Shown here: piece after piece, positions 58,285 to 63,119 of the stretch
Position numbering within the stretch: position 1 is the first letter of the stretch
Layout: each line of letters begins with the position of its first letter
Assembly (NCBI GenBank): GCA_049322655.1
Contig: JBMORP010000006.1
Location: 256,410 to 320,409 of the forward strand
Direction: 5' to 3'
Origin: Patescibacteria group bacterium
GTDB taxonomy: Bacteria > Patescibacteriota > Microgenomatia > UBA1400 > PJMF01
Length of the DNA stretch: 64,000 bases
Made by a program: the position numbers and the translations under genes
The notes under the pieces: model-generated
Told to the model about the DNA's origin: nothing
Database searches by the model: none
Seen by the model: only the letters and a program-made list of their open reading frames with translations

Positions 58285-58512
58285 TTAAAATTTTTTCAAC
58301 CTAAAAAGACCTTTTTTAGGTTTATAAACTTGGTCTGGATATTTTTCTAAAAGCTTCCACACACAACCATTAATAGTTTTGGGGTGAAAGGCTGGATAGG
58401 TTTCTTCTAACTTAGTTTTCAAATCTGTCCAACTCAAACCGGCTGGATACTGTTCTAACAATTCCAAAGCTTTAGCATTAATCTGACCAGTAATAGTAAG
58501 TTTCTTAATCAT
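58285..58512 (-). CDS. hypothetical small protein (75 aa)
   Basis: ORF only, immediately downstream of copZ in the same direction. Confidence 0.35.
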   Translation of the reverse strand: MIKKLTITGQINAKALELLEQYPAGLSWTDLKTKLEETYPAFHPKTINGCVWKLLEKYPDQVYKPKKGLFRLKKF

Positions 58513-58536: not shown

Positions 58537-58782
58537 TTACTCTTCCACTTTATAGCCCAAAGCCTCAATCGTTTTTTTAATTTTTTCTAAATTAACTTTT
58601 TCTGAATCATATTCCACTTTAGTCTCTGCTTTGGCATAGCTAGTAGTGGCACTGTTTACTCCCGTTAAATCTTCAAGCTCACCATCAATACTCATACTAC
58701 AGCTAGTACAATGCATGCCATTAATCCTCAAAGTAGCTACTGTTCCAGCTTGATTTTTATTTTTTTTAAAAAAATTTAACAT
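58537..58782 (-). CDS. copZ: heavy-metal-associated (HMA) copper chaperone
   Basis: GMHCTSCS MxCxxC motif in an 81-aa ferredoxin-like fold. Confidence 0.8.
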   Translation of the reverse strand: MLNFFKKNKNQAGTVATLRINGMHCTSCSMSIDGELEDLTGVNSATTSYAKAETKVEYDSEKVNLEKIKKTIEALGYKVEE

Positions 58783-58786
58783 ATAG

Positions 58787-59899
58787 TTAGATAACCTCCA
58801 TAATACCTGTGTACATTCCCATCGAACAAGAAAAAGTAAATTTACCTTTTCTGGTTGGGGTAAAAGTGAAACTTTGCGTATCAGTAGATTTTAAATAAGT
58901 ATTAATACCAAATTCCCTAAAAACAAAAGCCAAAGCACAAGAGTAAGTATTGTTACTTTGTAGGGTCATTTCTACTGGTACACCACTTTTCACTTTAATA
59001 TAGTTAGGTTGATAACCACGACTCAAAACATCTATTTTTATTTGTTGAACACCATTTTTTACACCAACACTATTGCCAGCCTGTTCAAATCTATCTGCAG
59101 AAAAAAAATAAGTAATTGGTTGAACAATTTTATTGAGTGTAAGCGGTGAATCAACTACTAATAAAACTCCATTAACACTATAAACAGCCATACCAATGAG
59201 AACGGTTGCCGCAAGCTTAGTAAATTTTTGATACCAACCCTCACTAAGCTTAGCTGTGGCTACACCCAAAATAGCAAATAATGGAGAAGTCCCCAAAATG
59301 AAAGTAAACATAATTGCTGCGCCAACAAAAGGATTGCCAGAGTTAATGGCTAATACCTCCATCGCTTGAGTTACTCCACAAGGAATAAAAATCGTCATCA
59401 AGCCCAATACGGCTGGAGCAAATAAAGCCTGACTTTTACTTGTTCCCCTAATTAATCTTTGAAGAAACTTGGGTGGTTGAAAAGCTAAATGACGAAAAAT
59501 AGGGTGAACATCCAATAAGTTCATGGCTGTGGCAAACATAAAAACAGCAGTGAAAACTTGAAAAGTTAATCTCATGCCTAAACTTAAAGTTATGGTTGAA
59601 CCAAGCAAACCTAGTAAAAAACCCAAAATGGTGTGAGCAACTAACTTAGCCAATAAAAACATCAAGACTGGCAACCAGTCTAATTGATCGAAAGACTGTA
59701 AAGAAAAACTATTTTCTTGTAAAGATTTTAAATATTTTTCTTTCCTCTTGGCTTTTTCTTTAACTTTGTTGTCATCAACTTCATCACGTTCTTGTTCTTT
59801 TTGGTTGGCAACCACACTAGCCAACAAGCCACCTTGCATCGCTAAACAAGATAACCCTCCTGTAGTTAAACCTGTTAGAAAAATAACTAATAAATCCAT
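58787..59899 (-). CDS. membrane protein with N-terminal DsbD/UreH-like transmembrane domain and C-terminal cupredoxin-like soluble domain (putative Cu-handling permease)
   Basis: GLTTGGLSCLAMQGGLL motif in TM1, a second Cys-containing TM segment (IFIPCGVTQAM), and a C-terminal beta-rich domain with a Cys/Met cluster (FSCSMGMYTG). Confidence 0.5.
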   Translation of the reverse strand: MDLLVIFLTGLTTGGLSCLAMQGGLLASVVANQKEQERDEVDDNKVKEKAKRKEKYLKSLQENSFSLQSFDQLDWLPVLMFLLAKLVAHTILGFLLGLLGSTITLSLGMRLTFQVFTAVFMFATAMNLLDVHPIFRHLAFQPPKFLQRLIRGTSKSQALFAPAVLGLMTIFIPCGVTQAMEVLAINSGNPFVGAAIMFTFILGTSPLFAILGVATAKLSEGWYQKFTKLAATVLIGMAVYSVNGVLLVVDSPLTLNKIVQPITYFFSADRFEQAGNSVGVKNGVQQIKIDVLSRGYQPNYIKVKSGVPVEMTLQSNNTYSCALAFVFREFGINTYLKSTDTQSFTFTPTRKGKFTFSCSMGMYTGIMEVI

Positions 59900-59912
59900 A
59901 ATTTTCTCCTTG

Positions 59913-62129
59913 TTATAATTTAATGCTCTTTAACCTCAAAGCATTTAATACCACACTTACACTTGAAAAAGCCATAGCTGCCCCAGCCATCATTGGATTC
60001 AACAGTACCCCAAAAGGCCAATACAATACTCCCATCGCCACTGGAATTAATAACACGTTGTAACCAAAAGCCCAAAACAGGTTTTGGCTGATATTCCTCA
60101 TCGTCGCTTTGGAAAGTTTGATGGCGGTTGGTACCAAACCGATATCACTTCGTAACAAAGTTACTCCAGCTGACTCAATCGCCACATCGGTGCCTCCACC
60201 CATTGCAATCCCCACATCAGCCGCAGCTAGTGCCGGAGCATCATTAATACCATCACCAACCATTGCGACCACTCCAAAATCTTTTCTTAATTGTCGCACC
60301 ACTCGTTCCTTATCTTTTGGCAAAACTTCAGCCACCACTTCATCTATGCCCAATTTATCAGCAATAATTTTGGCAGTTGTTTGGTTATCACCGGTTAACA
60401 TCACGGTTCTAATATTTTCCTCTTTTAATGAATCAATTACTGTAACAGAATTAACTTTTTCTTTATCAGCAATACCCAATATTGCTACTAGTTTTTTAGC
60501 TATCACCACCAGCACTAAAGTCTGGCCATTATTTTTTAATGAATCCACTTTTTCTTGCTCAGCAACAGTCAATTTAACTTTCAACTCTGTCAATAATTTT
60601 TCATTACCCACAGCCACTTGCTTACCATCAACTTGAGCAATCACTCCTTTACCGCCAATATCTTTAAAATCAGTCACTTCACTAAGCTTAACTTTTGGTT
60701 TGAGTAGTTTATCTGCATACTCAGTCAGGGCCGTAGCTAATGGATGATGAGATAATTCTTCAACTTTTTTAATCACTGCCAAAACTTGTTGCTGATTAGT
60801 TGTCATAAAATCAGCTTGCTGAACACGAGGTTTACCTTCTGTTAAGGTGCCGGTTTTATCAAATACAACTGTCTTAACCTTATTAGCCACTTCTAAAGCC
60901 TGAGCATCTTTAATTAAAACTCCCAATTTTGCTCCTTTACCAATCCCCACCATTAATGAAGTCGGTGTTGCTAAACCCAAAGCACATGGACAAGCAATAA
61001 TTAACACATTAATCATGCTCACCAAAGCAAATAATAACCTTGGCTCTGGACCAAAGATCAGCCACCCTACAAAAGTCAAAATTGCTAAAATAATCACTGT
61101 AGGCACAAAATAAGAAGAAATTTTGTCAACTAAAGCCTGAATTTGTGGTCTAGAACCTTGAGCTTCTTTGACCAAACGAATAATACTAGCCAACATGGTT
61201 TCATTGCCCACTTTGGTTGCCTTGATTTCAATACTACCTGATTGGTTGATAGTAGCGCCTACTACTTCATCCTTAACCATTTTCGTAACAGGCAAACTTT
61301 CTCCAGTAACCATACTTTCATCTAATGAAGTTTCACCTTTGATAATCACCCCATCAACTGGAACTTTTTGACCAGGTTTAACTAATAACACATCACCAAT
61401 TTGCACTTGATCAATTGGTACTTCCACCCATTGATTTTTTTTCTTCAACCAAGCAGTTTTGGCCTGTAAATTAAGTAACTCTTTAATCGCTGCTGAAGTT
61501 TTGGCTTTAGCTCTAATTTCCAGAAATTTACCCAATAAAATAAAAGTAATAATGGCAGCCGCTGCCTCAAAATAAACATGAGTATCAAGCCCATGACTCA
61601 TAAACCATTCTTCCCAAAGAGTCACGATTACTGAATAAAAATAAGCCACTGAAGTGCCTAGTACCACTAAAGTATCCATATTAGTAGTTTTATTTTTTAA
61701 ACTAGACCAAGCTCCTTGGTAAAATCTACTACCAGCCCAAAATTGAACTGGGGTAGCTATCAACCATTGGAACCAAGGGTTATAAAAAATAGCAGGTAGA
61801 TTGGGCAACATCCCAGAAAGCAAAACAGTAGAGAATACCCCACCTACTAGCAACTTATTTTTCATCAACTTTAACTCTTTAGCTCGCTCTTGTTCTTGAA
61901 TATCTTCATCTACTTCCAAATGTGCCATGTAGCCCAAAGAATTAACGGCTGCAACTAAATCGGTTGTCGCAGCTTGATTATCATCAAACACTACAGTCGC
62001 CTGCTCATTAGCATAATTAACATTAGCTTCAATCACCCCTTTAGTTTTGGTTAACTTTCTGGTGGTGTTACTAGCACAACTGACACAATGCATCCCAGAA
62101 ACATGAAAAGATATGGTTTGCTTAGACAT
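59913..62129 (-). CDS. copA: copper-translocating P1B-type ATPase
   Basis: N-terminal HMA domain (GMHCVSCA), CPC in TM6 ([12 protein letters not shown]), [17 protein letters not shown]. Confidence 0.9.
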
Positions 62130-62661
62130 ACTTAGTTGGATCCTGTTGAAATAACTTCATACAACCACTGGCACAAAAATAATAAGTTTGATGATCATGA
62201 TCACAACTAAAGCCAGCCGTTTTGGGAGAAATTCTCATCCGACAAACAGGATCATGAACTAAAGGCACTAAGTCGTTGATTTTCATCATCGCCTCCTTAG
62301 TAGATTGACCACTTTCGACTAATTGCTGAATAGTAATCTCTCGCATTAAATCACTGGCTTGAATAAACTTTTTATCAGCTAAGGAATAAAAGACCTGTTT
62401 ACCATCACGACGAGTTTTAACAATGCCAGTATCACGCAATAACATCAGATGTTGGCTAATGTTAGCCTGTGGTAAATCAAGCATTTGGTGAATATCACTG
62501 ACTGATAACTCTTGGTCTCTAATCAGATGAATAATTTCTAAACGCTTGGGATGAGCCAAAGCTTTTAATAACTGTGCATGTAATGCAAATACTTCAGAAT
62601 ACATATTCGATATTATGAATATGTTTTTAAATGATGCAAGTGGGAAAATCATGTTTGACAA
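62122..62661 (-). CDS. ArsR/SmtB-family metalloregulator fused to a C-terminal YHS/TRASH-like metal-binding domain
   Basis: ArsR HTH ([16 protein letters not shown]...[16 protein letters not shown]) and a C-terminal DPVCRM...FCASGC segment. The track start is a TTG; the true start is more likely ATG at 62652 or 62604. Confidence 0.8.
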
Positions 62662-62683
62662 ATCAACTCAATAGTTATATTAT
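62655..62683 (+). promoter_or_regulatory. sigma70-type promoter TTGACA-N17-TATTAT driving the DUF5320-like and DUF134 genes
   Basis: Consensus -35 at 62655..62660, 17-nt spacer, and -10 at 62678..62683. A good RBS (AAGGAG) precedes the ATG at 62718. Confidence 0.5.
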
Positions 62684-62701
62684 GAATATATATTCATAAT
62701 A
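62678..62701. promoter_or_regulatory. perfect 24-nt palindromic operator TATTATGAATAT|ATATTCATAATA (ArsR/SmtB-type 12-12 site)
   Basis: Perfect inverted repeat overlapping the -10 element. The 12-mer TATTATGAATAT recurs at 62611..62622 as part of an imperfect palindrome near the likely arsR start. Confidence 0.55.
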
Positions 62702-62717
62702 ATAAGAAAGGAGAACC

Positions 62718-62826
62718 TATGCCAAATAGAGATGGTACCGGCCCAAATGGTAAAGGACCTAGGACTGGTCGTAAAATGGGGAGCTGTAAACCAAAAATAA
62801 ATTCACCTAAAAAAAGTAAAAAATAA
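62718..62826 (+). CDS. small DUF5320-like ORF (MPNRDGTGPNGKGP...) with an apparent +1 frameshift near 62758
   Basis: N-terminal MPxxDGTGPxGxGP motif as recalled for small proteins encoded beside DUF134 genes. Frame 1 stops after 18 codons (…GPKDWS*). Dropping one A in CCTAAGG restores ...RTGRKMGSCKPKINSPKKSKK*, ending at 62826. Confidence 0.35.
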
Positions 62827-62843
62827 TTTTTAAATAGATTTTT

Positions 62844-63119
62844 ATGCCAAGACCTAAAAAGCTTCGTAGATTGAGATTTGATCCAAATGTTATTTACTTC
62901 AAACCAAGAGGTGTTCCCTTAAGCGAACTTGAAGAAGTGATTTTGGAGACAGATGAAATAGAGGCCTTAAAATTGCATGATGTTAATCAACTCAATCAAA
63001 ATAAAGCTGCTAAAGAAATGAAAATTTCTCAACCAACTTTTACCAGAATTTTAAACTCTGCTTATAAAAAATTGGCTGACGGGATTATTAATGGCAAAGC
63101 CATTAGAATTAAAAAATAA
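62844..63119 (+). CDS. DUF134-family predicted DNA-binding protein (sigma-70 region-4-like HTH)
   Basis: MPRPKK.RR..F.P.V.YFKP.G N-terminus and a C-terminal HTH (AAKEMKISQPTFTRILNSA); 91 aa. Confidence 0.75.
   Translation: MPRPKKLRRLRFDPNVIYFKPRGVPLSELEEVILETDEIEALKLHDVNQLNQNKAAKEMKISQPTFTRILNSAYKKLADGIINGKAIRIKK

Follow-up and report, generated by a model that had tools for sequence, protein, structure and literature searches.

The 64,000 nt stretch of DNA analysed here, hereafter the window, comes from contig JBMORP010000006.1 of a Patescibacteria group bacterium (assembly GCA_049322655.1, positions 256,410 to 320,409 of the forward strand; all coordinates below refer to the whole stretch), and contains a perfect 24 nt palindrome lying between a putative copper resistance operon, headed by arsR-YHS and copA, and a divergent pair of small genes encoding members of the DUF5320 and DUF134 families. 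Comparison with related loci indicates that the palindrome is the conserved promoter-operator of a cassette carrying these two genes, and that it is most likely bound by DUF134 itself. The region as a whole is best described as a pair of repressor-operator units that are independent of each other and came to stand back to back when the cassette was inserted, with DUF134 repressing its own operon through the palindrome, a reading assigned a probability of roughly 0.65. Under this model, a DUF134 dimer would bind the 7-2-7 core ATGAATA-NN-TATTCAT and, as this site extends from around -8 to +8 of a promoter close to the consensus, would occlude RNA polymerase at the -10 hexamer and predicted start, resulting in negative autoregulation. 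DUF5320, a glycine-rich peptide with one conserved cysteine that is always co-encoded, would be a candidate modulator of DUF134. The arsR-YHS-copA operon, by contrast, would be controlled from a separate site overlapping the -10 and start codon of a putatively leaderless mRNA, from which ArsR-YHS would dissociate upon binding of Cu(I) to its TRASH/YHS domain.

An original prediction, made from the letters of the window, had reported the palindrome and a TTGACA-N17-TATTAT promoter overlapping it on the plus strand. Both are present: the former was also recovered by an independent repeat search, and the latter matches the sigma-70-type consensus at 11 of 12 positions. Pfam likewise confirms the genes called at the time (ArsR HTH_5 and YHS domains, DUF5320 and DUF134). 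Of 300 first-order Markov simulations of the window, 1% produced a perfect arm of at least 12 nt, and a search with the 12-mer half-site found four matches at up to one mismatch, a number reached in none of 100 shuffles; together with the conservation across loci described below, these simulations and shuffles led to a chance origin of the palindrome being rejected. Its central 16 nt, identified as the conserved core, start inside the -10 hexamer and span the predicted +1, with transcription of the cassette probably beginning near 62690, at the centre of the dyad.

Two sets of loci were read with flanks of ±2.5-3 kb: 80 genome loci, including L001-L080, encoding ArsR-YHS homologues 51-96% identical to that of the window, and 80 metagenomic loci with a DUF134 protein sharing 60-73% identity with that of the window. 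Non-redundant subsets comprised 77 ArsR-YHS loci and 54 DUF134 promoters. Allowing up to one mismatch, the core is present at 56/80 DUF134 loci versus 1/80 ArsR-YHS loci (L001), and neither arsR-YHS nor copA lies near any of the 80 DUF134 loci. DUF134 loci without the core are mostly cut contigs or long operons with their promoter outside the flank. DUF5320 is found directly upstream of DUF134, on the same strand, in around 50/80 cases, and the element TTGACA-N16/17-TAT[A/T]AT, fused to the core and followed by GGAGG and ATGCCA, is evident in approximately 45 of the 49 readable regions upstream of DUF5320; this promoter arrangement recurs in 40 of the 54 non-redundant promoters. In most DUF134 loci, the core begins 2 nt before the end of the TAT[A/T]AT hexamer and 35-48 nt before the DUF5320 ATG (37 nt in the window). 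The exact 24-mer of the window is shared by L109, which has neither arsR nor copA, and three loci (L128, L147 and L148) harbour an additional core site 17 nt before the start of DUF134. No core at up to one mismatch was found outside DUF5320/DUF134 operons in the approximately 820 kb scanned, comprising around 760 kb of candidate phyla radiation (CPR) DNA from the 160 loci and the 64 kb window. The conservation of the motif, its positions and the pattern of gene co-occurrence are directly observed in these loci.

The arms of the core are nearly invariant, each position carrying approximately 1.8-2 bits, whereas the two central positions vary freely (TA in 31 of the 54 promoters, CA in seven, TG in five, AG in four, GG in four, CC in two and CG in one), a pattern that points to a protein-binding dyad rather than an RNA stem. 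This bears on the proposal that the symmetry serves no repressor at all, the palindrome instead being a core-promoter element of bidirectional or symmetric type, a cruciform or a stem-loop at the 5' end of the mRNA. Such a role is highly unlikely. It would account for the palindrome providing a -10 hexamer on both strands and lying at the very start of the transcript, but the arms are conserved in sequence instead of covarying, and a start near the dyad centre would leave only one arm in the RNA. Most DUF134 loci also lack both a divergent gene and conserved spacing to a minus-strand -35. The minus-strand promoter-like sequence, TTGGCA-N18-TATTAT, which points towards arsR in the window, is probably a by-product of the symmetry of the palindrome and the conserved ATGCCAA start of DUF5320, of which its TTGGCA is the reverse complement; this spacing is limited to the window and L001 and is not conserved, the palindrome lying 41-48 nt before the ATG in most other DUF134 loci as compared with 37 nt here. 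A known RNA element was rejected, as an Rfam search of the region returned no family at E ≤ 1, and membership of a defence system was rejected on the lack of any PADLOC match.

DUF134 alone among DNA-binding genes accompanies the palindrome in every case. Its AlphaFold2 model (confidence score, pLDDT, 85) contains a three-helix helix-turn-helix (HTH) that superposes on sigma-70 region 4, on the DNA-binding domain of DeoR (SorC family) and on GerE. There is no solved structure for DUF134 itself, the PDB yielding weak HTH matches only, of which the best by sequence is the DeoR DNA-binding domain 7bhy (E = 0.006). Across phyla, the motif changes along with the recognition helix: the CPR helix ISQPTFxRIL is associated with the motif ATGAATAnnTATTCAT, and the proteobacterial and clostridial helix VSRQT[L/F]xN is associated with (T/G)GCA[T/A]ATGCCA, found at the promoters of DUF134 genes or of adjacent NifX/MinD genes. 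This clade-level covariation supports the candidacy of DUF134 as the binder. Within the CPR, covariation of operator variants with the DUF134 helix was uninformative, since both are too invariant. That DUF134 might use the palindrome had been raised as an alternative in the original prediction, and it is the option favoured by the comparative data.

The preferred explanation of that prediction was different, namely that ArsR-YHS would use the palindrome, taken as an operator of the ArsR/SmtB type, to control the divergent pair as well as its own cop operon. The version considered here, in which ArsR-YHS binds the palindrome as well as its own site such that copper co-regulates both transcription units, draws on several features. 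The half-site TATTATGAATAT does recur, as had been noted, at 62611-62622, 7 nt upstream of the arsR ATG and inside the predicted ArsR-YHS operator, and the 12/13-mer ATATTCATAATA(T) is common to the palindrome and the arsR operator of this clade. Each arm of the palindrome contains ATATATTC, a good ArsR-YHS half-site; the core resembles the TGAA-N6-TTCA of SmtB/CzrA operators; and the two promoters stand back to back, their -35 hexamers separated by 15 bp. However, the site characteristic of the ArsR-YHS family is ATATTC-N8-GAATAT, which occurs exactly in 76/80 ArsR-YHS loci versus 0/80 DUF134 loci. In the palindrome, the half-sites abut and face inwards (GAATAT-N0-ATATTC), rather than facing outwards with their centres 14 bp apart, which makes the two geometries incompatible, and there is no ATTC-N8-GAAT arrangement, only isolated half-sites: the hexamers found 8 nt beyond the two ATATTC sequences, AAGAAA and ACTATT, match GAATAT at 2/6 and 1/6 positions. 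The palindrome is also missing from 79/80 ArsR-YHS loci, although present at DUF134 promoters with no arsR or copA nearby, and L002 retains the arsR operator without the palindrome. Given this absence and the different, conserved site of its own, ArsR-YHS was rejected as the binder of the palindrome, and copper co-regulation through it is regarded as extremely improbable; the palindrome occurs only where the cassette does. That the two sites have a 12-mer in common is coincidental, both motifs joining ATATTC to a stretch that is AT-rich and resembles a -10. At arsR the -10 falls within the N8 spacer, and at DUF134 the TAT[A/T]AT hexamer has its mirror image in the outer arm; each version is also found alone, the former in L002, which lacks the cassette, and the latter in L109, which lacks arsR.

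How the two units came to be adjacent is apparent from L001, whose ArsR-YHS is 96% identical to that of the window, and L002. The latter, whose ArsR is 89% identical to that of the window, has the same arsR operator with neither the palindrome nor DUF5320/DUF134, and its homology to the window ends at 62646. Homology between L001 and the window ends at 63110, and past the end of DUF134, L001 matches the L002 sequence that immediately precedes arsR. On the basis of these two boundaries, the approximately 460 bp cassette is a clean indel, bounded on one side by the stop codon of the gene upstream and on the other by the arsR promoter. The -35 hexamers of the cassette and arsR promoters were thereby left back to back, 15 bp apart, with each operator over its own -10/+1. 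Adjacency of the cassette to arsR-copA is found in the window and in 1/80 ArsR-YHS loci (L001) versus 0/80 DUF134 loci and, being the product of the indel, appears incidental.

Several considerations weigh against autoregulation by DUF134. The family has no characterised member, and its mode of DNA binding and dimerisation are assumed. The assignment of proteins to sites is a prediction, as are the transcription start sites and the effectors. The covariation comes from only two specificity classes, and the motif outside the CPR is short, its 8-mer core giving approximately 0.3 chance matches per 5 kb. A clear site is lacking in around four of the 49 regions upstream of DUF5320. Many CPR genomes encode both ArsR-YHS and DUF134 far apart (for example, longest contigs of matching length, 315 kb and 1.08 Mb, suggest that the two genes share a contig), and regulation in trans by ArsR-YHS is thus compatible with the phyletic pattern.

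The core additionally fits the TGAA-N6-TTCA core of SmtB/CzrA-type operators and the ArgR ARG box, TGAAT-N4-ATTCA, and for this reason a regulator encoded elsewhere is possible. This could be an ArgR-like protein, an ArsR/SmtB paralogue or a global regulator, with DUF5320-DUF134 being one member of its regulon. The fit to these consensuses, which serves as a lead only, and the small ArsR-like genes that flank DUF134 in 6/80 loci both favour such a protein. The full ARG-box consensus is the 18-mer wnTGAATwwwwATTCAnw, usually present as tandem pairs at arginine metabolism genes. By contrast, the sites described here are single, have C or G in their central positions in 23/54 cases, are not accompanied by arginine genes nearby and, at up to one mismatch, are confined to DUF5320/DUF134 operons throughout the DNA scanned; identity with the ARG box (ArgR/AhrC) was consequently rejected. 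As DUF134 is also the only DNA-binding gene always accompanying the site, and the motif changes together with its helix in other phyla, an unlinked regulator is considered rather unlikely, and autoregulation by DUF134 remains preferred. Neither this motif nor that of ArsR-YHS was convincingly repeated as further regulon members within the window. The features of the region are listed in Table 1.

Table 1. Predicted and annotated features of the cassette and the cop operon, with related plasmid elements
Feature	Position	Strand	Remarks
Palindrome TATTATGAATATATATTCATAATA (TATTATGAATAT abutting ATATTCATAATA)	62678-62701		Perfect 12+12 inverted repeat, no spacer; sequence reading and independent repeat search
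Conserved 16 nt core, ATGAATA-TA-TATTCAT	62682-62697		Predicted operator of the DUF5320-DUF134 promoter
Cassette promoter, sigma-70-type	62655..62683	+	TTGACA 62655-62660, N17, TATTAT 62678-62683; 11/12 consensus matches
Promoter-like TTGGCA-N18-TATTAT	62696..62725	-	Palindrome supplies TATTAT; points towards arsR
Cassette (promoter, operator, DUF5320, DUF134)	62647..63119	+	In window and L001, not in L002
Shine-Dalgarno sequence AAAGGAG	62707..62713	+	5 nt before DUF5320 ATG; GGAGG-type sites in most related loci
DUF5320 gene, short form, 35 aa	62719..62826	+	Pfam PF17253, 39.5 bits (cut-off 27)
DUF134/UPF0251 gene, 91 aa	62844..63119	+	Pfam PF02001, 83.1 bits (cut-off 27); HTH protein, predicted autorepressor
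ArsR-YHS operator ACATATTC-ATAATATC-GAATATGT	62601..62624	- (minus-strand reading)	Inverted repeat ACATATTC-N8-GAATATGT; predicted
arsR-copA promoter	62610..62639	-	-35-like TTGCAT 62639..62634; -10 CATAAT 62617..62612 or TAATAT 62615..62610, within operator spacer
arsR-YHS, 160 aa	62122..62604	-	ArsR/SmtB winged helix and C-terminal YHS/TRASH domain; C121, C144, C148
CopA P1B-ATPase	59913-62129	-	Pfam; remainder of cop operon spans 58537..62129
Fusion of DsbD_2 transmembrane domain and C-terminal cupredoxin-like domain	58787-59899	-	cop operon
HMA chaperone	58537-58782	-	cop operon
Plasmid module elements	L166 3949-3991; L170, L171, L172 ~1448-1491; L168 3455; L169		

The second unit, the arsR-YHS-copA operon, has copA directly downstream of arsR-YHS in around 64/80 loci. 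The YHS domain of the regulator scores 41.9 bits in Pfam (cut-off 30.3), and each of 18 sequences compared retains its three cysteines, C121, C144 and C148. Translation of arsR starts at the ATG 62604..62602 on the minus strand, rather than at the TTG at 62661, given that homologues are 159-161 aa long. Upstream, ArsR-YHS loci share an element consisting of TTGACA, 11-12 nt and ACATATTC-N8-GAATATGt, in which the N8 spacer opens with a hexamer, mostly TAATAT, at -10 distance from the TTGACA. In 42 related loci the TTGACA ends 11-12 nt before ATATTC, which would make TAATAT the -10 and leave 6 nt between it and the ATG, and the geometry TTGACA-N17/18-TAATAT-N6-ATG holds for most of the set. The last ATG of the repeat is the arsR start codon (+18) in 68 of the 77 non-redundant loci; that of the window sits in the promoter-distal arm of the operator (GAATATG). 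The -35 is degenerate in the window and L001 (TTGCAT). In the window, the first base of the ATG comes 6-8 nt after the -10, and a Shine-Dalgarno sequence is absent. The short distance from -10 to ATG, combined with this absence, suggests that arsR-copA mRNA is leaderless across the CPR, with the operator covering the -10, the +1 and the first two codons. The embedding of the start codon in the operator (flank ATGTAT) would also account for the invariant Met-Tyr N-terminus of ArsR-YHS.

Extra ArsR-YHS-type sites ending in ATG are found in L044 (2021-2040) and L039 (443-462), before other first genes of cop-like operons, the products of which are an approximately 320 aa Cys-rich protein (CCDN..CNHG), an approximately 169 aa membrane-anchored protein and a DsbD-like membrane protein. 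These positions suggest a small ArsR-YHS regulon extending beyond copA. At the far end of the window's cop genes, a 75 aa open reading frame (58285-58512) has no Pfam match. Many of the related ArsR-YHS genome records are labelled 'uncultured Pseudomonadales' or 'Gammaproteobacteria', with ArsR-YHS and CopA closest to Patescibacteria-named proteins, and such labels look unreliable.

Within the cassette, the Pfam match of DUF5320 is limited to its N-terminal 26 aa, corresponding to positions 1-26 of the 99 in the profile; the protein combines the conserved N-terminal motif MPxxDGTGPxGxGPxTGR..C with a Lys-rich tail. DUF134 begins 17 nt past the DUF5320 stop codon with no recognisable Shine-Dalgarno sequence, that of DUF5320 being strong, and its translation may depend on coupling or re-initiation.

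The original prediction had also linked DUF5320 and DUF134 to metal homeostasis. Such a link does not follow from this locus, as the adjacency to cop genes results from the cassette indel, but metal and cofactor genes are indeed found in other neighbourhoods of the two families. For instance, L150 has the order DUF5320-NifX-NifX-MinD(2x[4Fe-4S])-DUF134, and in a number of CPR loci (L150/L151 393-2779, L088, L107, L146, L108, L105 and L127) the genes lying between DUF5320 and DUF134 encode two NifX-like proteins, an ATPase of MinD type bearing two 4Fe-4S motifs and/or a cation diffusion facilitator (CDF) exporter, the palindrome heading a long operon. The CDF exporter directly precedes DUF134 in L088, L107, L108, L127 and L146. 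The small ArsR-like genes mentioned above adjoin DUF5320/DUF134 in L106, L137, L142, L152, L143 and L108; that of L108 encodes approximately 97 aa ending in CCCS and lies directly upstream of the palindrome. Fur is found near DUF134 in L176, and Dps and ArsR are found beside it on Klebsiella plasmids.

A module of DUF134 and NifB/NifX, in some cases with a PaaI thioesterase and Dps, is present in 185 plasmid records, mostly from Klebsiella, Citrobacter and E. coli. In the enterobacterial, Aeromonas and Salinivibrio versions of this module, twin (T/G)GCATATGCCA elements flank the -10, approximately 29 nt apart, the Salinivibrio form being GCATAAGC. Similarly, clostridial DUF134 genes occur in NifX, MinD-Fe-S and C_GCAxxG_C_C clusters with sites resembling TGGCA[A/T]ATGCCAAT before the first genes. 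The clostridial proteins (L173-L177 and L167) are around 145 aa long and have a Cys-rich, zinc-ribbon-like C-terminal extension (CxxC...CxxC) missing from the 91 aa CPR proteins. This may be a built-in sensor, perhaps supplied in trans in the CPR. A metal- or cofactor-related role for the DUF134 family is plausible. A bolder, and quite unlikely, proposal is that DUF5320-DUF134 would be a portable, self-repressing sensor module of anaerobes and CPR bacteria, in which DUF5320 reports metal or Fe-S/Mo-Cu cofactor status to DUF134 and the ancestral regulon is the NifX-like/MinD-Fe-S/CDF cluster; the orphan cassette against the cop promoter could then feed DUF134-controlled transcription into arsR-copA from its outward promoter at 62725..62696.

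In the paper library searched, there was no functional study of DUF134/UPF0251, DUF5320 or an ArsR+YHS protein, and no published description of the DUF134 motif. The predicted unit is reminiscent of autoregulated small HTH repressors, such as DeoR of Bacillus subtilis, GerE/LuxR-type proteins and the plasmid-encoded KorA, in having a dyad over the core promoter of its own operon. Unlike these, DUF134 starts with a basic segment that is conserved, MPRPKKxRRLRFxPNVYYFKPRGIP, and includes two short strands, with the CPR form lacking a sensor domain; its binding and oligomeric state are those predicted above. A possible parallel for the palindrome is provided by the 12-2-12 operators of SmtB and CzrA, dyads of about the same length that are likewise rich in AT and have TGAA-N6-TTCA at their core. 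The sequence ATGAATATATATTCAT fits their consensus, although across genomes the site tracks no ArsR gene and the adjacent ArsR has a different conserved site.

That site has a closer parallel, as ATTC-N8-GAAT is the reported recognition motif of the ArsR-family repressors SqrR, BigR and YgaV (PMC9774250), and the core at 62601-62624 similarly lies over the promoter of its own gene. BigR is the best match among solved structures to the sequence of the ArsR-YHS HTH and its second-best NCBIfam match, yet the score of 78 bits against an equivalog cut-off of 155 indicates a relative rather than a BigR. By contrast with SqrR and BigR, a C-terminal YHS/TRASH Cys motif replaces the persulfide-sensing Cys pair, and the start codon lies within the operator. 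The position of arsR-YHS upstream of copA means the effector is probably Cu(I), not sulfide. Archaeal CopR/CopT also fuse a DNA-binding HTH to a TRASH-type domain beside a CopA ATPase and chaperone (PMC7830388), but assemble as octamers, carry an HTH of the Lrp type and switch on divergent genes, whereas the CPR ArsR-YHS has an ArsR winged helix, is co-transcribed with copA and, as implied by the position of its operator, would act as a repressor. With regard to the neighbourhoods of DUF134, the Orp complex of Desulfovibrio comprises a NifX-like orange protein and MinD/Mrp Fe-S ATPases (PMC6345978), and in Desulfovibrio vulgaris the orp operons are under sigma-54 and OrpR (PMC8359166). DUF134/DUF5320 similarly recur with Nitro_FeMo-Co (NifX-like) and CbiA/MinD-Fer4 genes in the CPR, Clostridia and enterobacterial plasmids, although the cassette in the window has lost all NifX/MinD partner genes.

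The region thus appears to contain two ordinary kinds of repressor-operator unit, and illustrates that a 12-mer common to neighbouring promoters can be coincidental. ArsR-YHS is dominant among the copper regulators predicted in CPR genomes, and its site would provide a first operator model for it, with a conserved start codon embedded in the operator on a putatively leaderless mRNA. DUF134/UPF0251 and DUF5320 are widespread, being found in CPR bacteria, Clostridia, enterobacterial plasmids and archaea, and the comparisons nominate DUF134 as a local regulator of NifX-like/MinD-Fe-S clusters. The palindrome would be the first concrete operator for this uncharacterised family, and the conserved 16 bp site, along with the motif of a second clade, turns what was a 'predicted DNA-binding protein' into a testable repressor-operator pair.

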